64,000 nt of DNA from a virus. The translations under genes and the position numbers were made by a program. Positions within the stretch are counted from its first letter, which is position 1. Each line of letters begins with the position of its first letter. This document shows, in pieces, positions 1 through 57,923 of this stretch. Location of the stretch: positions 32,001-96,000 of IMG/VR virus record IMGVR_UViG_3300035670_000045; one strand, given 5' to 3'. The notes beneath the pieces are model-generated. The model searched no databases. It was given only the letters and a program-made list of their open reading frames with translations, and was not told the DNA's origin.

Positions 1-138
1 CCCGTACTCGCCTCCCCCGTCTTCCCCTCGCCGGGCGTACCTGCCTGTTGGGAGGAATTCCACCCCAGCGCGCTCTGCGGATAGTAGTGCGGATTCCAAC
101 TCATTCTGGAACGGGACCATCTTCGGAGCATACCTCGA

Positions 139-1968
139 ATGAGCCAGCCCTTCTCAGCCTCTGACACGTTGGACGACGACAACGAGGAGGTCCAGCTTCT
201 CTCAGACGACGAGATGCGTCGTATCCATGAGGGTGGGATCTGGTTCCCCGAGCCCGAGCCGATCGAGTGGCTCTACGACGGTTCGGAGGAGGAAGACGCC
301 GGCGTCCGCGGTACCGTGCCTCTGAAGCTGTCGGACTTCACCAAGTTCGCGTTCCGTTTGCCCTCGGGGGACACCGGGGAGTTTGCGCCGTTCTCCTTCG
401 AGGGTCGGCGTCACATGCTTCGGATCTACGACACTTCGGCCAAGAAGATCCTCCTCATCTGCGCCCGCCAGACGGAGAAGAGCACGTCCCTTGGGAACAA
501 GTCGATCGGGCGTAGCTGCCTGATTCCTGGGCACAAGACGCTATACGTGTCGCCGTCCGCTCTGCAGTCCAAGACGTTCTCGATGGACCGTATCAAGGAC
601 CCCATCGAGACGAGCGAGATTCTGAGGGGCTACACCACCAGGCACCTCAGCCAGAACGTCTTCCAGAAGCAGTTCGTGAATCGCAGCCAGATCATGCTGC
701 GTTACGCGTTCCTCAACGCGGACCGGGTACGCGGTACGACTCCCTGGTCGATCATCCTCGACGAGTTCCAGGACTTCCTCGCGGACACCATCCCCGTCAT
801 CGAGCAAGCGTCCTCCCACGCTCCGGCAAACCACCGCACGTTCATGTACGCGGGGACCCCGAAAGGGGCGGACAACCCCATCGAGTACCACTGGTCGGGG
901 GTCACCCGGCTGGGTAAGCCGATGTCCACGATGTGCGAGTGGGTGGTGCCGTGCGAGGGGTGCAGGCACTGGAACATCCTCGGCGAGAAAAACATCGGGA
1001 AGAAGTTCCTCATCTGTGAGCGGTGCGGGAAGCAGATCCACCCGCAACACGATCGAGCCCAGTGGGCGGCAGGAAATGCGAACGCGGAGTACGAGGGGTA
1101 CCGCATCAACCAGCTGATGGTCCCGTGGCGAAAGTGGGACGACATCCTGGCGGACTACGGCAAGTACACCCGGGACAGGTTCTACAACGAGGTGCTCGGC
1201 ATCTCGTTCGACTCCGGTATCCGTCCTCTCACGCTCGCGGAGCTCAAAGCGAACTGCAACAGCAGCGTCAGCATGGCGGAGCTCCGGCTCGAGGCGTTCC
1301 GCAAGCAGCTCATCTCCGACAATGCGCCCGTGTTCGCCGGGGTGGACTGGGGGCAGGACGGCTCGAGTTACACGGTTTTGACCTTGGCGACCTACGTCAA
1401 CAACCGGTTCCGCGTGTTCTTCATCCACCGGTTCGAAGGGGCGGACTTGGAGCCGGATGTCCAAGTGGCGAAGATCATCCGCATATGTCGGGCGTACCGC
1501 GTCAAGGTCATCGGTGTGGACTACGGCGCGGGGTACGTGCAGAACAAGCAGCTCATCCACGCCTTTGGGGCGACGGTGGTGCAGCAGTACCAGTACGCGG
1601 TGCGTCTTCGGGCCAAGCTCGCTCGCGAAAAGAACAATCGACGCTGGATCGTGAACCGGTCGGAGATCATGAGCGACATGTTCTCTGCGCTCAAGCGTAA
1701 GAACGTGTTCGAGCTGCCACGGTGGGAGGAGTTCGGGACGCCTTACGGCCAAGACATCCGAAACATCTACACGGAGTACAACGACAAGCTGCGCATCATC
1801 GTGTACCAGCACCGGCCGGACCGGCCGGATGACAGCTTCCACTCCATCACGTTCTGCTTCCTGGCATCGATGCTGGTTCGTCCACGCCCGGACATCATCA
1901 CTCCGCGTCGTGAGCTTTTCCCCGAGCCGATCCTTTGGAGCTACGACGACGGTGCTTCTCAAGGTTGA
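139..1968 (+). CDS. terL: Terminase large subunit
   Basis: Walker A-like ARQTEKST, Walker B IILDEFQD, GTP coupling motif, CxxC...CxxC Zn module as in lambda gpA-like TerL, RNase H-like nuclease FAGVDWG and C-terminal PDDSFHS. Confidence 0.85.
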   Translation: MSQPFSASDTLDDDNEEVQLLSDDEMRRIHEGGIWFPEPEPIEWLYDGSEEEDAGVRGTVPLKLSDFTKFAFRLPSGDTGEFAPFSFEGRRHMLRIYDTSAKKILLICARQTEKSTSLGNKSIGRSCLIPGHKTLYVSPSALQSKTFSMDRIKDPIETSEILRGYTTRHLSQNVFQKQFVNRSQIMLRYAFLNADRVRGTTPWSIILDEFQDFLADTIPVIEQASSHAPANHRTFMYAGTPKGADNPIEYHWSGVTRLGKPMSTMCEWVVPCEGCRHWNILGEKNIGKKFLICERCGKQIHPQHDRAQWAAGNANAEYEGYRINQLMVPWRKWDDILADYGKYTRDRFYNEVLGISFDSGIRPLTLAELKANCNSSVSMAELRLEAFRKQLISDNAPVFAGVDWGQDGSSYTVLTLATYVNNRFRVFFIHRFEGADLEPDVQVAKIIRICRAYRVKVIGVDYGAGYVQNKQLIHAFGATVVQQYQYAVRLRAKLAREKNNRRWIVNRSEIMSDMFSALKRKNVFELPRWEEFGTPYGQDIRNIYTEYNDKLRIIVYQHRPDRPDDSFHSITFCFLASMLVRPRPDIITPRRELFPEPILWSYDDGASQG

Positions 1969-34684: not shown

Positions 34685-35334
34685 AAGAGCTCTGGTTCCG
34701 GTACCAACGAGAAGGCGAGTTCTATTCCGGGGCGTTCTCCGACGGCGAGGACAGTACCCCGCACCAGCTTGTCGTTCGAGTCAGCTGGGAGCAGCTGCTC
34801 CGTGCTTTGGCTCGAGAGATTGCTGCAACTCCAGCGGGTACCCCGCTGCTACTCGTGCGGGCCGACCACCCCGCGATGTTCCCTTCTCGCATCCCGGATG
34901 AGACCGTGGAGCTGTTCCGTACAGACCCCGTGTCCGCCATTCGGGAGTGGACCGTACGGTCAGCAGATTACCGCCGCGCGCAGGTGCCTCCTCCTGTTCC
35001 CGCGGGTCATTCCGTACTGGCCCGCATGTTTGGGGAGTACCTCTACCTCCCGATGGACCCAAAGCGCATGCGGGTAGAATCCCCGGTCACGGGGGAGATG
35101 GAGGAGGTGTCCAGCCTGCACTTCCGAGACGGGTCAGGGTGGATCCCACTTCGACATGTGGCCCAGCAGTGGGTCTTGTGTTCTGTCGAAGATCTTCTAC
35201 TCTCCTCGAAGGCAGACAAGTTCTACTTGCCACGCCCGTGGAACGAGCATGGTGAGTGGATTTCCCGCTCCCAGCTGTGGGGCAAGTTGTCCCGTTACCG
35301 GACTGAGGTCCAGAAAGCCGTGGCTGACCTATGA
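34681..35334 (+). CDS. Hypothetical protein
   Basis: 217-aa ORF with ATGA overlap. Confidence 0.6.
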   Translation: MKELWFRYQREGEFYSGAFSDGEDSTPHQLVVRVSWEQLLRALAREIAATPAGTPLLLVRADHPAMFPSRIPDETVELFRTDPVSAIREWTVRSADYRRAQVPPPVPAGHSVLARMFGEYLYLPMDPKRMRVESPVTGEMEEVSSLHFRDGSGWIPLRHVAQQWVLCSVEDLLLSSKADKFYLPRPWNEHGEWISRSQLWGKLSRYRTEVQKAVADL

Positions 35335-35702
35335 GCAACCCGTCACACCAACCCCGCCTCCCCATGCACGACGCTCCCCATTCCGCTTCGGCGGCGACGC
35401 AAGTGCAGGGCGCCGTGAAGATCGAGTACTACGCAGTCCAGCGGACCCAGGTCAACCCCCGCACCGGCAACGTCGAGAAAGTCCAAGAGATCTGCTTCGA
35501 CTTCCTCGGCACCATGTTCGTCGTCCCGGGCTCGGCCGAAGCGCTCAAGCAAGCCCCTGCGTACACGCCCGAGATGCGCCGGGATGTGCTCCGTGCAGCC
35601 GATGCCACCGCGAAGCTCGAACCCACCACGCCGTCGATCGACCCCCCCGCGGCCAAATCGGGCGTCTCGGCCATCGCCATCGCGAACGCCGTCCCGCGAT
35701 GA
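35331..35702 (+). CDS. Hypothetical protein
   Basis: 123-aa ORF with typical codon bias. Confidence 0.6.
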   Translation: MSNPSHQPRLPMHDAPHSASAATQVQGAVKIEYYAVQRTQVNPRTGNVEKVQEICFDFLGTMFVVPGSAEALKQAPAYTPEMRRDVLRAADATAKLEPTTPSIDPPAAKSGVSAIAIANAVPR

Positions 35703-36025
35703 GCGTTCGACCCTACGGAGGCCATGTGCTGGTGCGGGAGCACCCTCGGGCCAAGAAGAGCAAGGTGCTCGAGCTCATCACGAACGAGTCCAACGTGCTC
35801 ACGGGTGAGGTGCTCCAAGTGGGCCCCGGCGCGGTGGGGAAGAAGGGCCGGGTGGCCCCCACCGTGCGGGTAGGGGAAAAGGTGGCATTCCTCCGCTGGC
35901 ACAAGGAGCACCAGGCCGGACGCGCCGTGCAGCACGCCCTGGAGGGGGAAGGGGAAGGCCTGAGCATCCTCAGTGAACGAGACATCCTATTCGTCTACGA
36001 CGGCGACATCGAGGTGGACACGTGA
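35699..36025 (+). CDS. groES: GroES-like co-chaperonin (Cpn10)
   Basis: RPYGGHVLV, GEVLQVGPG, VRVGEKV, ILSERDIL match the Cpn10 consensus. Confidence 0.8.
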   Translation: MSVRPYGGHVLVREHPRAKKSKVLELITNESNVLTGEVLQVGPGAVGKKGRVAPTVRVGEKVAFLRWHKEHQAGRAVQHALEGEGEGLSILSERDILFVYDGDIEVDT

Positions 36026-51018: not shown

Positions 51019-54000
51019 GTGAGCTCGAAGAAAGACTCCCCTCAGCTGCAGCCGCACCAGCAACGAGTCGTCGATCGGATCTCCCGCGACGATCAGCCGG
51101 GGCTCATCGTGGCGCATGGGCTCGGAAGCGGGAAGTGCGTCCGAGGCGACACACCTATCCTCACGGACAGGGGTCTGCTGCAGATCCAGGACCTGTTCCC
51201 CAAAGGTATGGAGGTGGACGCAGAAGTCACCCTAGATGGGGGAGGCTACCAAGTCCTATCGCTCGTGAACGGAAAGACCCGGTGGTCAGCTGTGCGGGCC
51301 AGGTACGCGCAGAGGCTTAGCGCATCGGAGCGAACGATTCACGTCGTTACGGAACGAGGGTCAGAGGTGTGCGCTACGGGGGCGCACCCGCTCCTCGTGC
51401 TTCGCGCTGGCGTACCCACTTGGGTGCCCGCTCGTGAGGTCGCAGTTGGTGAGTGGGTTGTGATGCCAGACCTGGTGGATGGGTCCCCGTCCCCTACCCG
51501 GTTGGACTCGTCGTTGGCGGTATGCGCGGCTTGGCTGACCACAGAGGGCTGGGAGGACTCCAAGAAGCGCGGCAGCTTCGTGATCACTCAGCACGGTAAT
51601 CGGCCCATGCTCGAGAGCTTGCATCAGTGGTTGCGAGCTACCTACGGCGTTGGGCGGATCCGCGAGTCCGGGCATGACCTGGTTGCCTGCAGCAGGGCCC
51701 TGGCCGACGACCTGCAGGCCTGGGGGCACACCTGGGGGCTCAAGAGTGCGCACAAGAGGCTCCCGTACAGCATGCTGTCGGGGGGCTTCAGTATGACTCG
51801 GGAGGTCTTGCGCATCTGCTGGGAGGCTGAAGGTCACATCTCCGCTGCCAACGCGGAGATCACTTCAGCTTCTCGCTTTCTTATGGAGCAGTACCGGTAC
51901 CTGCTTTTACAGCTTGGAGGCAGGTCCTCTTGCAGGGCGAAATGGTCGATCGCCAGCAATGGCACCGGGCCCTATCGGGAGTACTGGAGGTCCTCGGTTT
52001 CCGGGGAGGACCTGGAGGCTCTAGCCCTAGCAGTCCGAGGCACCAAGAAGGGTCGCAAGTTGGAGGTCATCGCTGGCCGCAAGCGGAACCCAAACACGGG
52101 CGTCCCCGTCGACTGGCTGTACAAATTCTTGGACTTGAGCCCCAAGTTCTTTGGGTGCACTGCGAATAACAGACGTAGCGTGAGCAGAGCGTCCGCACTG
52201 CGAATGCTAGAGAAGTTGCAGTGGTTGGAGACTGGCACCGCGTTGGACTCGCTGCGGCTTGCAGTCAGCGGTCTAGGCGGTACCGCGCGCTCCTACGCTC
52301 AGAGGAACTTACGTGTGGCTGAGCGTAGATCCGAAGTTCGGGTCGCCAGGGAGCGTCTGTACGCCATCGTCTACGGCCCCTACCGATTCGAGCAGGTCGA
52401 GTCGACTACCCCCGGATCCGCTGGCGGGCTGGTCTACGACGTCGAGGTCGACTCGGACGTGTACGATCACAAGAACTATGTGGGGGGTTACGGTGGGTGG
52501 TACCTCCACAACACGCTCACGAGCATTGCCGCGCAAAAGGCGCTCGGAGTCCCTTCTCAAGTCGTAGCGCCGGCGGCCTTGCTGGGGAACTACTCGAAGG
52601 AGCAGAAGAAGCACTACGGGAAGGGTGCCAAGCCGGCGGACCTCGTGTCCATGCAGCAGGCCGCTCGTACAGGGGAGCTCGAGAACACCGCGCTTCGCGT
52701 CGTCGACGAGGCACATCGAGCTCGAGACCCCGGCACGGCCACCTACCGTGCCCTGCGGGATTCGCCGGCCGAGAAGCGGCTACTTCTTACAGGCTCCCCC
52801 TTCTACAACCACCCCAGTGACATCGCACCACTGCTGCGCATCGCCGCCGGGACCAGTCTGGTCCCGGAGGACAAGGCCGAGTTCACGAGCCGCTACATCT
52901 ACGACAAGCCGGTCAAGCCAGGGTTGTTCGACCGATTCGTGCACGGGGCGACCGGGGGCACAGTAGCCACTCTCCGCCCCGAACGTGCAGAGGAGCTCCG
53001 TGGAATCTTCTCGAAGTGGGTGGACCATCACCCCGGTACGCGTGAGCACTTCCCCGAGGTGGAGCATGTCGACGTCGATGTGCCGATGAGTGACGGACAA
53101 CGACGGGTGTACGACACGGTGATGGACGCGGCCCCGTCGTGGGTTGCCGCCAAAGTGCGGCGGGGTCTTCCTCCCGACAAGCAGGAAGCGAAGCAGCTCA
53201 ACGCGTTCCTGTCTGGAGCTCGTCAGATCAGCAACTCCACCGCCGGGTTCATCCCCGAAACTGACAAGGCTGAGGGGCCCAAAATCCAGAAGGCCTTCGA
53301 GAACCTCAAGAAGGAGCTCGACTCGAACCCCCGCTCGAAGGCGGTCGTCTACTCCAACTTCCTACAGGCGGGCATCAACCCGTACAAGGCCCACCTCCAG
53401 TCAGCAGGGATCCCGTTCGGTGAGTTCACCGGCGAGATGGGACGCGCGCAACGTGACCAGCTCGTTCGCGACTACAACGACAACAAGATCCGAGCTCTCC
53501 TACTGTCGTCCGCCGGTGGCGAGGGCCTGGACCTCAAAGGCACGCGGCTCTTGCAGGTGTTGGAGCCCCACTGGAACCGTGAGAAGCTACGGCAAGTCGA
53601 AGGCCGAGGTGCACGTTACATGAGCCACGCCGATCTACCCGAAGAAGAACGCAAGCTGCGCATCGAGAACTACATGTCTTCCCTGCCGGAAGGTACCATG
53701 GGGCGGCTCTGGCGCACCGTGTCCGGCCGGGAAAAGGACAAGTCGGTCGACCAGTACTTGGCGCAGATGTCGAACGACAAGGATGCGCTCATTGGTCAGT
53801 TCAAGGGACTGCTGCCCCAACACTCGAACGAGAAGGCTGCTGCAAATCGGTCGGTCAAAGAGTGGCGAGCACTCAACGCTGCGGGTGACACCGCAGGTGC
53901 AGACCATCTAGCCAAAGCGTATGGGGGTCTAGGCAACCAGCCTCGTTACCTGCGGGACATCTCGATCGGCGGCAGTGAGGCTGCAGTCGACCAGATGATG

Positions 54001-54963
54001 GGACGCGTGCAGAACCCAACGACAGGCGCGGTCAATGAGTCGGGGTATGTCGCCCGAAAGCTGTACAAACCTGACTCGGACATCACGCGAGGGGAGCACA
54101 CCAACCAGATGCTGCACCAAAAGCAGCAACTGACCGACGAGGCTCGCGCACTATCCCCTCAAGCCAAGTCGATGGTCCCTGACATGTACGGGCACAAGAC
54201 GATGGGGTCCGGCGGACTTCAGCGTACGATTAGTGACCATGAGTACGTGCCCGGGCTCACGGACATCAGGGGCTCCAGGGTGCAGACCCCTCAGGGGGCA
54301 CAGTGGTCACGCACGCCCAACGCACGCCGAACCGACCTCGAGGCCGTGCAGTCCACCGTCTTGAAGCCAATGGAGTCTCGCGGCAAAATGATGGCAGACA
54401 CCATTACTGCGCAGGGTACGAACTACGGGAACGTACTCAACTCCCCATCGGGACCGAAAGTCATGGACTTCCTCCCGATTGTGGAGGGCCAAAAGGACCA
54501 CATCTCTGACTCCTATCGGAAGTACGCCCCGACTTCTCCGTCAAAGTACACGGAGGGTGCGGCGGGTGCCAACCCCAACAAGCTGCAACGGGAACTGCGG
54601 CGTGAGGTATTCCGTCCTCAACAAGCAGTTTCGGAAGCCCCGGCACACATGCAGATGCAAGCGGCGGCTCACTTACGTGGGGAAGGCCCTGCACCTACCA
54701 CCGCACCAGCAAGGGCTCCTACGTCTTCCGTGTCTACGGCAGGTGCCCGCACCAGTGCGCCTGCGGCCCGAACCAGCATGCCGGCCCAGACGTCAGTACC
54801 AACTGTACGCCCCGCCCGGGTGAGCATCCACACTCCTGCGCCTACGATGCCTACCGTGCGGCCCAGTATGGGTGCAGCACTAAAGGGTCTGCAGACAAAA
54901 GCTACAAGCGTCCTCGGACGCGTTGCGACACAGGCCGGGAAGGCGGTTGCACATGCACACTGA
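51019..54963 (+). CDS. SNF2/SF2 helicase-ATPase with an intein and a C-terminal protein kinase-like domain
   Basis: HGLGSGK/T, VVDEAH, LLTGSP, AGGEGLDL, QVEGRGAR; after EKAAA: IGGSEAAV, VARKLY, HEYVPG, D......NYGNV, VMDF. Confidence 0.85.
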   Translation: MSSKKDSPQLQPHQQRVVDRISRDDQPGLIVAHGLGSGKCVRGDTPILTDRGLLQIQDLFPKGMEVDAEVTLDGGGYQVLSLVNGKTRWSAVRARYAQRLSASERTIHVVTERGSEVCATGAHPLLVLRAGVPTWVPAREVAVGEWVVMPDLVDGSPSPTRLDSSLAVCAAWLTTEGWEDSKKRGSFVITQHGNRPMLESLHQWLRATYGVGRIRESGHDLVACSRALADDLQAWGHTWGLKSAHKRLPYSMLSGGFSMTREVLRICWEAEGHISAANAEITSASRFLMEQYRYLLLQLGGRSSCRAKWSIASNGTGPYREYWRSSVSGEDLEALALAVRGTKKGRKLEVIAGRKRNPNTGVPVDWLYKFLDLSPKFFGCTANNRRSVSRASALRMLEKLQWLETGTALDSLRLAVSGLGGTARSYAQRNLRVAERRSEVRVARERLYAIVYGPYRFEQVESTTPGSAGGLVYDVEVDSDVYDHKNYVGGYGGWYLHNTLTSIAAQKALGVPSQVVAPAALLGNYSKEQKKHYGKGAKPADLVSMQQAARTGELENTALRVVDEAHRARDPGTATYRALRDSPAEKRLLLTGSPFYNHPSDIAPLLRIAAGTSLVPEDKAEFTSRYIYDKPVKPGLFDRFVHGATGGTVATLRPERAEELRGIFSKWVDHHPGTREHFPEVEHVDVDVPMSDGQRRVYDTVMDAAPSWVAAKVRRGLPPDKQEAKQLNAFLSGARQISNSTAGFIPETDKAEGPKIQKAFENLKKELDSNPRSKAVVYSNFLQAGINPYKAHLQSAGIPFGEFTGEMGRAQRDQLVRDYNDNKIRALLLSSAGGEGLDLKGTRLLQVLEPHWNREKLRQVEGRGARYMSHADLPEEERKLRIENYMSSLPEGTMGRLWRTVSGREKDKSVDQYLAQMSNDKDALIGQFKGLLPQHSNEKAAANRSVKEWRALNAAGDTAGADHLAKAYGGLGNQPRYLRDISIGGSEAAVDQMMGRVQNPTTGAVNESGYVARKLYKPDSDITRGEHTNQMLHQKQQLTDEARALSPQAKSMVPDMYGHKTMGSGGLQRTISDHEYVPGLTDIRGSRVQTPQGAQWSRTPNARRTDLEAVQSTVLKPMESRGKMMADTITAQGTNYGNVLNSPSGPKVMDFLPIVEGQKDHISDSYRKYAPTSPSKYTEGAAGANPNKLQRELRREVFRPQQAVSEAPAHMQMQAAAHLRGEGPAPTTAPARAPTSSVSTAGARTSAPAARTSMPAQTSVPTVRPARVSIHTPAPTMPTVRPSMGAALKGLQTKATSVLGRVATQAGKAVAHAH
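51136..52512 (+). mobile_element. Intein with LAGLIDADG-type homing endonuclease
   Basis: Begins C(VRGDT), has block B TGAHPL and endonuclease blocks AWLTTEG and ICWEAEG, ends YLHN followed by T; 459 codons inside Walker A. Confidence 0.9.
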
Positions 54964-55414
54964 CGAAAAAAGTGAGAGTGAGAAGCTGCGGGAGGTGCTC
55001 GAGCGCATCCGTACCCGCACTGAACGTACGGGCAACACGATCCCCTGGCATGACCGGGATCTGCGTGACGACAAGAACGAGTACGACCACATACCTAACA
55101 AGCTCGGGTCGGACCACCTGATGTTCCAGGCCTGCTTCGCCGAGCTCACGAAGACGGCGGGCAAAATCGTACGAGAGACCTCGCTGGCGATGACACGCTC
55201 GGGCAAGCGGCCTATCTCCGTCCAGAAGTTCCTCCAGAAGCTCGACAAGGGGGAGCTCGGGTGGAAGCTTGCGACCAAGTCCGGAGACGGAGATCCCACG
55301 CAGGAGTGGCCGCCCACCAAGCCGTTGCCCCAAAACGCGGTTGCCGGGGTCGACAAGGTCGACACCGCGCGGGTGTCCCGCCAGACCTTCACTTTCCCCG
55401 TGCTCTCTCGCTGA
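54953..55414 (+). CDS. K-x-A-tagged hypothetical protein
   Basis: FQACFAELTKTAG and WKLAT; start uncertain. Confidence 0.6.
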   Translation: MHTDEKSESEKLREVLERIRTRTERTGNTIPWHDRDLRDDKNEYDHIPNKLGSDHLMFQACFAELTKTAGKIVRETSLAMTRSGKRPISVQKFLQKLDKGELGWKLATKSGDGDPTQEWPPTKPLPQNAVAGVDKVDTARVSRQTFTFPVLSR

Positions 55415-55429
55415 GGTAGGATGGTCCGC

Positions 55430-55783
55430 ATGTCCCCCATCGATCCGCGTGTCCTTCAGGCGTTCAGCGAGGCCCTCACCAAGGAGGGGAGCGCGGGTGG
55501 CTACATGTCGCGCTTGGGGCAGCACCTGAAGGCGTCACCTCGTATGGGGCGGGTGGCTACCCACCTGGCGGACCATGGGCACGTCTACGACCTGGCCGGT
55601 CTTGGCGGGATGATGGGGCTCGAGGCAGCCCACGCCGCCCACTCCCTGAAGAAGGACCCCATGACGGGCAAGCGGGACTGGCGGGGTGCCCTCGAGTCGG
55701 GGGCCGAGGGTGCCTTCCTGGGCACGCTGGCGGCCCCAGTGGCGGCGAACCTCCTCCTCAAACGGCCAGGCGGGGCTCACTGA
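55430..55783 (+). CDS. Small tagged glycine-zipper protein
   Basis: QAFSEALTKEGS; LAGLGGMMG and GAFLGTLAAPV; alternative start at 55421. Confidence 0.65.
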   Translation: MSPIDPRVLQAFSEALTKEGSAGGYMSRLGQHLKASPRMGRVATHLADHGHVYDLAGLGGMMGLEAAHAAHSLKKDPMTGKRDWRGALESGAEGAFLGTLAAPVAANLLLKRPGGAH

Positions 55784-57161: not shown

Positions 57162-57923
57162 ATGTCCAAGGTCGACGAGTTCCTGGAAGCGAAGCTGGCT
57201 GCTGGTGAAAAGCGGCGGCAACAAGAGCTCCAACACCTCGAGCAATGGCGGGAGTCGAAGGACCCTGCGCACCTCAAACCCTTGCTCCAGTCGTACGCCC
57301 CGGTCATCGCCGGGGCGATGCGGATGTACAAGGCGCCCGACGTGCCCGAGTCGGCCATGCGGGCGGAGCTCACGGAGATCGCGATCAAGGCTTTCGAAAG
57401 CTACGACCCGACGCGTGGAGCACAGCTCAACACCCACGTTCAGAACCACATGAAGAAGTCCATGCGGTTCAACGGCAAGTACCAGAACGTGGGGTACATC
57501 CCGCCGGAGCAGACCCAGTGGATCGGCAAGATCCAGCGCGCGCAGTCCGACTTGCAGGACTCGCTGAACCGTGCTCCGACGGACCACGAGATCGCCCAGC
57601 ACGTAGGGAACGGGTTGACCCCCCACATGGTCACACGCGTCAAAGGCAACCTGCGGGCAGACATCAACACGTCCGCGTTCGAGGAGGACCCGTTCGAGCA
57701 TGACGGGGCACGGGACCAGGAAGTGCTGTCCCTCCTGCCTTTGGCACTCGGGCCCAAGGACAAAGAGGTGTTCGCTTACCTCTACGGGGACAAGCAGGAC
57801 AAGGCCCCCATGCTCGGGGGTCGAGTCAACATGGGGGCGTTGGCGAAACAGCTCAACATGAGCAGCTCGCAGATCTCCCGATCCCACAAGGTCATCAAGG
57901 ACACCTACAAGAAGTACAGGTAA
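57162..57923 (+). CDS. Phage sigma-70 family factor (FliA/SigF-like domain layout)
   Basis: Region 2 IKAFESYDPTRGAQLNTHV, region 3 LNRAPTDHEIA, region 4 HTH LAKQLNMSSSQISR. Confidence 0.85.
   Translation: MSKVDEFLEAKLAAGEKRRQQELQHLEQWRESKDPAHLKPLLQSYAPVIAGAMRMYKAPDVPESAMRAELTEIAIKAFESYDPTRGAQLNTHVQNHMKKSMRFNGKYQNVGYIPPEQTQWIGKIQRAQSDLQDSLNRAPTDHEIAQHVGNGLTPHMVTRVKGNLRADINTSAFEEDPFEHDGARDQEVLSLLPLALGPKDKEVFAYLYGDKQDKAPMLGGRVNMGALAKQLNMSSSQISRSHKVIKDTYKKYR

Follow-up and report, generated by a model that had tools for sequence, protein, structure and literature searches.

A predicted kinase-like module fused in frame to an intein-interrupted SNF2 helicase in a metagenomic phage

Bases 32001-96000 of the 126,743-base IMG/VR virus record IMGVR_UViG_3300035670_000045, which is estimated to be 68% complete, were analysed as one stretch of 64,000 nucleotides (the window). 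This stretch contains an open reading frame (ORF) at 51019-54963 on the plus strand, open over 1314 amino acids (aa), the product of which is P0002 in our protein set. An earlier reading of the letters alone, referred to here as the original prediction, had seen in this ORF an SNF2 helicase carrying an intein, with a protein kinase-like domain appended behind a K-x-A site, and had suggested that the protein is packaged, spliced and then cut into a translocase and a kinase effector delivered at infection. The analysis described below confirmed the observation itself, while the interpretation placed on it was partly supported.

The fused gene and its intein

The helicase part of the ORF was recognised by two Pfam models, both over their cut-offs, namely SNF2-rel_dom (PF00176) over aa 560-739 at 3.1e-07 and Helicase_C (PF00271) over aa 760-867 at 3.4e-13. 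In PHROGs, the ORF was assigned to the DNA helicase family phrog_62 (7.2e-31). With an SNF2-related N-domain and a helicase C-domain both present, this part of the product is predicted to be an SNF2 helicase, and 224 homologues of it were collected at E ≤ 1e-40.

The helicase is interrupted in its Walker A loop (GLGSGK/C...HN/T) by an insertion that starts with C40, ends with H497-N498 and is followed by T499 at the +1 position. Pfam placed LAGLIDADG_3 within the insertion at 6e-06 and Intein_splicing at 5.4e-05, the latter under its curated cut-off. The orthologous helicases of two other loci, L004 and L008, are intein-less and run through the same stretch uninterrupted (GLGSGKTLTSIAA); the boundaries of the intein were set from these orthologues together with the splice residues. 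Since the stretch is unbroken in both orthologues, the predicted splicing would restore the P-loop as GLGSGK/TLTSIAA, and the intein that had been proposed in this helicase can be taken as bona fide by sequence comparison. Intein domains also occur in several other helicase homologues according to precomputed Pfam annotation. The features of the fused gene, and of the two genes downstream of it, are collected in Table 1.

Table 1. Features of the ORF at 51019-54963 and of the adjacent small genes, in window coordinates (domain numbering is protein numbering minus 938)
Feature	Position	Strand	Basis or remark
N-extein of SNF2 helicase, aa 1-39	51019..51135	+	Walker A stretch GLGSGK at end; without N-terminal leader
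LAGLIDADG intein, aa 40-498, 459 aa	51136..52512	+	within P-loop; Cys first, His-Asn last, Thr +1
C-extein of SNF2 helicase, aa 499-935	52513..53823	+	C-end ...IGQFKGLLPQH
Junction SNEKAAAN, aa 936-943	53824..53847	+	K-x-A is K939-A940-A941, 53833-53841; P0004 mosaic breakpoint; start of dip in third-position GC
Predicted trimmed protein-kinase-like core, aa 944-1228	53848..54702	+	AlphaFold2, Foldseek, VIA-align
Phosphate-loop-like G984-G985-S-E987 (domain G46, G47, E49)	53968..53979	+	loop between strands 38-44 and 50-56
K1014 (domain K76), candidate ATP-binding lysine of strand 3	54058..54060	+	strand 72-78
Catalytic-loop-like D1127 to N1135 and N1138 (domain D189, N197, N200)	54397..54432	+	conservation
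D1150-F1151 (domain D212-F213), metal-binding DFG-like motif	54466..54471	+	conservation, PknB alignment
Pro/Thr/Ala-rich tail, predicted disordered, aa 1229-1314, C-end ...GKAVAHAH	54703..54960	+	confidence of model < 50; third-position GC 0.558
Two small downstream genes, about 55121-55414 and 55421-55783	55121..55783	+	leaders CFAELTKTA and FSEALTKEG

Predicted fold and conserved positions of the C-terminal domain

The C-terminal part of the protein (aa 939-1314, 376 aa), when used alone, gave no match in Pfam, PHROGs or NCBIfam, none to PDB sequences by phmmer or with a profile of A1, an alignment of 40 family proteins, and none in the GenBank phage collection by megablast or tblastn. IMG/VR searches with the single protein, or with its relative P0004, likewise returned nothing for this part. 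An exhaustive HMMER search of 1.84 billion representatives, by contrast, gathered a family of 75 clusters at E ≤ 0.001, 37 of them at ≤ 1e-30. These clusters, formed at 50% identity, are all metagenomic and all labelled hypothetical or unnamed.

The structure of the window's domain was predicted with AlphaFold2 using A1 as input alignment. The model had a mean predicted local distance difference test (pLDDT) value of 83.2 and a predicted template modelling score of 0.75, with 262 of the 376 residues at 90 or above. Confidence was about 97 over domain residues 10-280 (blocks of 91-99 for 11-230 and of 81-97 up to 280), and fell below 50 from residue 291 on, which we read as disorder; the P/T/A tail of the original prediction corresponds to aa 1229-1314 and is predicted to be disordered. 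The core opens with two helices. An N-lobe of five strands and a single long helix comes next, then the EYVPG hinge and a small C-lobe.

Structural comparisons of this model pointed to kinases throughout. With Foldseek against the PDB, 322 of the best 500 matches had E ≤ 0.001, and among the matches listed all were protein kinases, with Rio2 at the top (2.6e-05). VIA-align, applied to Foldseek's 1000 best, gave Z ≥ 8 for 276, including CDKL1 (Z 10.9, root-mean-square deviation 3.0, 145 residues aligned), ULK4 (Z 10.7), Rio2 (Z 9.5) and PknB (Z 9.1, PknB 9..163 against model 35..218). A search of 48,161 representative chains that was independent of Foldseek yielded 59 at Z ≥ 8, and the best 50 of these 59 were all of kinase fold, among them Rio1 (Z 9.7, 172 residues aligned, model 1..222), RIOK3, YihE (Z 8.6) and an aminoglycoside phosphotransferase (Z 8.3). 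In BFVD the top matches were viral Ser/Thr kinases. Because best Z values of 7-8 arise with VIA-align in the absence of true kinship, so that values of 9-11 lie only moderately above that level, the case for a kinase fold is made jointly by the Z values, by the motifs and by the fact that the matches are so uniform. On these grounds the C-terminal domain of the fused helicase is modelled as a protein-kinase-like fold, as the original prediction had held and had asked structure prediction to decide.

The alignments to solved kinases mostly ended at model residues 212-231, shortly past the D-F motif, from which it follows that the activation loop and the substrate-binding parts of the C-lobe are probably absent. 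A trimmed C-lobe without activation loop and an extra helix ahead of the N-lobe are given as hallmarks of RIO proteins (PMC2564912), and the predicted domain is thus trimmed in the RIO manner.

The order of kinase subdomains in the original prediction could be placed on this model, where every listed motif falls on the expected element. Their key residues are conserved well above chance in 69 relatives, as little as about 30% identical, over which all positions were counted. IGGSEAAV forms the loop joining strands 38-44 and 50-56 (G47 and E49, each 68/69), VARK lies within strand 72-78 (K76, 66/69), VPDMYG stands at the start of strand 118-124, and HEYVPG, the hinge, ends strand 131-137 (E137, 67/69). 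D189, invariant in all 69, directly follows strand 185-188, which is the strand after the long C-lobe helix, and both N197 (64/69) and N200 (68/69) precede strand 201-204. VMDF comes after strand 207-210, with D212 kept in 69/69, F213 in 64/69 and K209 in 62/69. As the glycine loop, the strand-3 Lys, the Asp and Asn of the catalytic loop and the Asp of the D-F motif are all kept, the module is most likely an active ATP-dependent phosphotransferase.

Several observations weigh against reading the module as a kinase. The TM-scores from Foldseek were low (0.25-0.32 by query length), and a Pfam search with 40 family members gave no kinase family for any of them at E ≤ 5. Searched with single models at E ≤ 10, the phage record yielded neither Pkinase (PF00069; controls matched in 12 of 14 genomes) nor RIO1 (PF01163; controls matched in 11 of 14), nor Kinase-PolyVal (PF18762), for which no control genome rose over the cut-off, leaving the sensitivity of that last search unproven. 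The Asp-to-Asn spacing of the catalytic loop (D189-N200) is 11 where 5 is canonical, and relatives in A1 carry variable inserts there. On the long N-lobe helix the best acidic candidate, D102, is present in only 47/69, the conserved residues of that helix being K97 and R105. The equivalences between our motifs and kinase residues were drawn from position in the secondary structure and from alignment ranges rather than from residue-level superposition. Lastly, RIO proteins may act as ATPases and not as kinases (PMC4117770), and for that reason 'kinase' may be the wrong name for the activity of this domain.

Among known families, the closest in build are the RIO proteins Rio1 and Rio2 (RIO1, PF01163), which likewise have a trimmed kinase fold without activation loop and extra helices ahead of the N-lobe, and which align to model residues 1-222 over 146-172 residues at Z 9.2-9.7. 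Their phosphate loops read STGKEA and GxGKES against GGSEA here, with Glu-Ala after the glycines (PMC2564912), and an I/V/M-D-F metal-binding motif is found in both. Unlike in RIO proteins, the Asp-to-Asn distance is 11 and not 5, no Lys is found in the loop, and the RIO1 model does not match. RIO proteins are cellular ribosome-maturation factors, whereas the present family is phage-borne and has a leader and a disordered tail.

In context, the domain resembles Kinase-PolyVal (PF18762). Iyer et al. in 2017 described polyvalent proteins, for which they proposed packaging, delivery and processing into units, and with them a monophyletic minimal kinase that lacks the C-terminal subdomain, carries a Glu ahead of strand 2 and has its catalytic region interrupted by an insert (PMC5512222). 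Kinase-PolyVal too is a kinase domain of multi-domain phage proteins with SNF2 helicases and InPase. Loss of the C-terminal subdomain and the Glu just before strand 2 (here E49) are common to both, and so is an insert in the catalytic region, theirs lying between His and Asp and ours between Asp and Asn (PMC5512222). Their conserved Gln of the last N-lobe strand was not seen here, where S134, H136 and E137 stand instead, and Kinase-PolyVal was found in (pro)phages of Verrucomicrobia-Chlamydia and Bacteroidetes (PMC5512222). Two features are thus shared with Kinase-PolyVal as that text describes it, but PF18762 does not match, and we therefore keep the two apart and file our family, from its sequences, as a variant of the kinase domains of phage polyvalent proteins that is not a member of PF18762.

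The nearest named Atlas clusters were T7-kinase, Kinase-PolyVal and YrbL (score 0.90), and 13% of the members of the T7-kinase cluster carry the family; we treat both as leads only. A literature search for phage kinases in jumbo phages, or for the leader peptide as text, returned nothing relevant.

The fusion, its K-x-A leader and its neighbourhood

Three further loci, L002 (a 194 kb record), L003 (183 kb) and L004, have a gene order in common with the window, in which genes for products of about 1160, 88, 550 and 1025 aa are followed further on by a sigma-like gene and by genes for about 380 and 330 aa. At the syntenic position of the fusion these loci carry stand-alone kinase-like genes of 412, 454 and 448 aa, respectively. 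An SNF2 query found no match at E ≤ 0.001 in the records of L002 and L003 (100% and 98% complete), in a search run without a positive control. At L004 the helicase is a separate gene 3 kb downstream of the kinase-like gene, and its C-terminus carries another, glycine-zipper-like domain after ...LLPKHEKTAAA. The helicases of L005-L008 terminate at aa 932-938 of the window protein, which is the junction. The SNF2-kinase-like fusion was found in P0002, P0003 and P0004, and the kinase cores of P0002-P0004 group with the stand-alone P0006 in a single clade (SH-aLRT support 99), in a tree of kinase cores built by a quick method from 69 of 81 rows. As the domain usually stands alone at the same syntenic position, in relatives without an SNF2 match, the fusion is best read as derived. 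By these comparisons it is lineage-specific, and the kinase-like module is a separable and not an invariant part of the helicase.

These loci also bear on two points raised in the original prediction. It had placed the end of the helicase at NEKAAAN, and similarity of stand-alone helicase orthologues to the window protein does end at aa 932-938, position 53833 being the first base of K939. It had also asked whether orthologous helicases carry different C-terminal domains behind the same motif. They either end at the junction, as at L005-L008, or continue into other domains after a like K-x-A motif, as at L004 (after HEKTAAA) and elsewhere with InPase, LigD phosphoesterase, GNAT and others.

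The public protein P0004 is identical to the window protein at 932 of the first 935 positions (3 differences), the break comes exactly after H935, and beyond it the kinase core is 50.8% identical, a mosaic that we see at the protein level only. In the window the G+C content at third codon positions (GC3) amounts to 0.812 for 22 reference genes and 0.783 for the helicase exteins, but to 0.686 for the core and 0.558 for the tail. In 40-codon windows it falls from 0.82-0.90 (aa 881-940) to 0.53-0.65 (aa 921-1000). The break in P0004 and this fall together fit a recent exchange of modules at the junction, and they point to module-level exchange between near-identical phages. The divergent codon usage once claimed for the entire appended domain thus holds in part: GC3 dips at aa 921-980 and is low again at aa 1181-1314, but aa 981-1160 are near normal, and values no higher than that of the core also occur in 3 of 46 reference windows. 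A donor from a distant clade was considered for the kinase module of P0004 and rejected, since the module falls in the same clade as the other SNF2-fused cores, on a branch of 0.75 against 0.17-0.23. Its sequence would be accounted for either by an unsampled relative as donor or by fast divergence.

Both modules are also found with other partners. The kinase-like module is found fused to InPase, to LigD_N with ligase, to HNH and to DUF5661, and the helicase orthologues to InPase, LigD phosphoesterase, DNA ligase, GNAT, a C39-type peptidase, DUF5661 and others, so that the orthologues of both show the architecture of polyvalent proteins, with several unrelated enzyme domains per polypeptide drawn from a shared pool.

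By profile matches, P0070 (1101 aa) apparently has two tandem kinase-like cores at aa 375-669 and 779-1069. P0077 (809 aa) comprises a LigD 3'-phosphoesterase, an ATP-dependent ligase and the kinase-like module, an arrangement which bears on the substrate of the kinase-like domain.

Stand-alone members of the kinase-like family begin with a leader of 12-20 aa, with the consensus aFxDELEK-I-A-x-T-R. Of the 39 members with a domain start no more than 40 aa from the N-terminus, 26 have this leader. Counted from the conserved Arg of the module, a Lys five residues ahead is found in 70 of 72 relatives and an Ala three residues ahead in 63; K-x-A in full occurs at this place in 63/72, in N-terminal and internal modules alike. 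The K-x-A site that had been singled out at the junction is therefore real and non-random. The flanks of the helicase gave the same picture. Among 120 helicase homologues the end of the helicase (QFRxLL) could be located in 92, and K-x-[AS] lies within 16 aa past it in 58 of the 67 with at least 100 further residues, as opposed to 1 of 25 unfused helicases, the background rate in the same proteins being 10.8%; these counts come from related sequences, and a binomial p-value on them overstates their independence. K-x-[AS] also stands within 14 aa ahead of the helicase start in 83 of 94. Taken around both the kinase-like and the helicase modules, these counts indicate that K-x-A marks the start of modules with different folds.

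Unrelated proteins start with the same leader: at L004 and L008 it is the helicase that does so, at L002 and L003 the small neighbours of the kinase-like gene. The joint of the fused protein retains only E-K-A-A of it, and the junction SNEKAAAN can be regarded, from its sequence, as what is left of the leader found ahead of stand-alone family members. The possibility that the leader is a genome-wide N-terminal tag was also examined, and rejected. In G001, a complete relative, a six-frame search gave 12 matches, only 4 of them within 33 residues of an ORF start, and those four leader-headed ORFs lie side by side around the kinase-like gene; for the record of the window, matches to the leader pattern are loose and mostly internal. 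By this test, with four adjacent genes in G001, the leader is not a general virion tag.

Two further features of the termini were recorded. The helicase end motif QFRxLLP (L005-L008, P0080-P0196) resembles the first half of the leader (aFxDEL), and fused helicases add (E)K-x-A after it, which gives the look of a stretched leader and a possible recombination joint. The C-termini of the family often end in hydrophobic residues and His (AHAH, SHFH, LHV, AHL); a His within the last four residues is found in 29 of 78 family proteins against 10.4% expected, window positions 54940-54960 included. The small neighbour proteins end similarly, in GGAH and SGHA.

Of the two small genes downstream of the fusion, the second encodes a glycine-zipper-like product ending in ...GGAH, and leader-bearing counterparts border the kinase-like genes that stand alone at L002 and L003. 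Small neighbours at window 55121-55414, L002 9279-9869 and L003 8467-9597 have in common G-R-R-P-I-S-V..LL.K.K.GEL after the leader, a motif that in P0016 and P0035 is fused ahead of the kinase-like module. At window 57162-57923, 2.2 kb downstream of the fusion, a 253-aa product matches Sigma-70 region 3 (4.7e-06), and this sigma-like protein is kept in L002, L003 and L004 at 33-41% identity. Upstream, between 42581 and 50995, three large conserved proteins (1159, 530 and 1030 aa) have no family match; the Atlas gave a weak baseplate-like lead for the one of 1030 aa (score 0.92). Further upstream, the C-terminal 100 aa of the 289-aa protein at 35156-36025 match the phage GroES co-chaperonin family phrog_3188 (7.8e-07). 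Nine of ten neighbours had no match in Pfam, nine of ten none in PHROGs; of the further ORFs, again nine of ten had none in PHROGs, and NCBIfam matched none of nine proteins.

Explanations for the fused gene

The explanation that we consider probable is that the gene is an in-frame fusion of an intein-interrupted SNF2 translocase and a RIO-like kinase-like module, joined in a remnant of the leader. Two phage modules, each encoded by a gene of its own in relatives, would have become fused in frame in one lineage. The first would be an SNF2-type DNA translocase with a self-splicing LAGLIDADG intein in its P-loop, and the second a trimmed RIO-like protein-kinase-like domain from a family of uncultured phages of about 180-200 kb. 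The joint would lie within the short leader (aFxDELEK-I-A) that precedes modules at N-termini and between fused domains, with its K-x-A end surviving. The fold, its conservation, the fusion history and the motif statistics carry this explanation. Beyond them we infer that the modules would be released or targeted through K-x-A, serving as a site of processing or of recognition, and that, like polyvalent proteins, they may act at an early stage of infection. With respect to such cleavage and packaging, some findings speak to the contrary. The leader present on stand-alone helicases and kinase-like proteins is absent from the N-terminus of the fused protein; no peptidase, portal or MuF domain was found in that protein with Pfam; and the neighbour matches in Pfam, PHROGs and NCBIfam included no known virion family.

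A broader form of this explanation, which we put forward tentatively, is that a modular effector system uses aFxDELEK-x-A as a general signal for addressing and cutting, with K-x-A cut by a phage protease and the RIO-like kinase delivered with the virion. The leader would then stand ahead of every module (helicase, kinase-like, InPase, ligase, glycine-zipper), alone or in polyproteins, in phages of ~190 kb, the protease would cleave K-x-A in the course of packaging or afterwards, and recombination at the leader would reshuffle modules in frame. Such reshuffling would explain how P0004 came to have a near-identical helicase and a 50%-identical kinase module.

A comparable system is that of T4, whose capsid-targeting sequence is a short N-terminal peptide on otherwise unrelated internal proteins and is removed by the prohead protease. 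Our leader is likewise a short N-terminal peptide common to unrelated proteins, although its sequence (aFxDELEK-I-A) differs and, unlike the T4 peptide, it is also found between fused domains and in G001 on four adjacent genes only. P1 DarB and other SNF2 polyvalent head proteins also combine an SNF2-type ATPase with other enzyme modules in one polypeptide. The fused protein differs from DarB-type proteins in having, by Pfam, no methylase and no MPTase peptidase. For SNF2 polyvalent proteins, co-delivery with DNA and processing into units have been modelled (PMC5512222).

Taken to its full extent, as in the original prediction, virion delivery would mean that the spliced protein is packed and cut at K-x-A, and that translocase and kinase are ejected with the DNA, the kinase then phosphorylating host proteins in the manner of T7 gp0.7. 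We regard this as possible but doubtful. K-x-A does occur at module boundaries whatever the adjoining module, the leader ending in K-I-A heads 26/39 N-terminal members, unrelated neighbours and stand-alone helicases, much as a capsid-targeting propeptide might, and the 1030-aa upstream protein supplies the weak baseplate-like lead. Partner domains such as InPase are, moreover, phage-type polyvalent domains and likely packaged (PMC5512222). Against it, the fused protein has neither the leader at its N-terminus nor a peptidase, portal or MuF link, and the sigma-like gene nearby would suit an expression module equally well. Nor is T7 gp0.7 (PF27024), a phage kinase presumed to target host proteins early in infection, a detectable relative: its hhalign comparison with A1 had a probability of 0.07% and an E of 0.72, and the Pfam searches gave no hit to its family. 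It is expressed after entry and has no such leader, and to our knowledge it is not fused to a helicase.

It could equally be envisaged, though we think it rather unlikely, that the protein is an uncleaved two-domain enzyme, with its kinase-like domain acting in cis with the translocase. This domain might, for instance, be an ATP-driven clamp or regulatory module, or it might phosphorylate host proteins that the translocase encounters on DNA, and K-x-A would be a structural helix cap or a recombination joint. In the model of the stand-alone protein P0012 the leader with its K-x-A prolongs the first helix (pLDDT 69-74), and given this continuity K-x-A could be structural, which counts against a role in processing; as a prediction, this model neither proves nor excludes a cleavable propeptide. 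The likeness of the helicase C-terminus, QFRxLLP, to the leader aFxDELEK could drive in-frame recombination, and the breakpoint of P0004 falls exactly there. However, K-x-A precedes unrelated modules (helicase, kinase-like, InPase, glycine-zipper), unlike a cap specific to one fold. The majority of the family stands alone, and no helicase match was obtained in L002 and L003, both near-complete, which argues that the kinase-like module does not need the helicase.

A further alternative questions the substrate rather than the fusion. That the module is not a protein kinase but a RIO-like ATPase switch, or a small-molecule or nucleic-acid-end kinase in nucleotide or DNA transactions, seems unlikely to us. 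All identified fusion partners of the module act on DNA or nucleotides (SNF2, HNH, InPase, LigD 3'-phosphoesterase with ATP-dependent ligase), and a phosphoesterase-ligase-kinase trio as in P0077 recalls end-healing and sealing enzymes. Small-molecule kinases also match the model, as seen with YihE and the aminoglycoside phosphotransferase, and the C-lobe is without substrate-binding parts, as in RIO proteins (PMC2564912). On the other hand, protein kinases are the top structural matches, and we know of no polynucleotide kinase of kinase fold. Nor need a fusion of polyvalent type mean a common substrate (PMC5512222).

Lastly, an inactive pseudokinase that binds a partner or nucleotide only would suit the atypical catalytic loop (no Asp five before N200, variable inserts), the want of a clear Glu on the long N-lobe helix and the presence of the pseudokinase ULK4 among the best matches (Z 10.7), but it is improbable, as 66-69 of 69 relatives retain D189, D212, N200 and K76, which would be unexpected without catalysis or at least metal-nucleotide binding.

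If the fusion of a translocase with a RIO-like kinase-like module is the correct explanation, it would add to phage biology an unnamed, widespread family of minimal kinase-fold enzymes that escapes all sequence models. With K-x-A, module boundaries in phage proteins of polyvalent type would gain a concrete signature that can be counted. We found no mention of such a signature in the available part of the 2017 polyvalent survey (PMC5512222), and through it the long-standing idea of a processing of these proteins into units would become directly testable. The combination in P0004 of a near-identical helicase with a strongly divergent kinase module suggests exchange or diversifying pressure on the latter, as for a host-facing effector.

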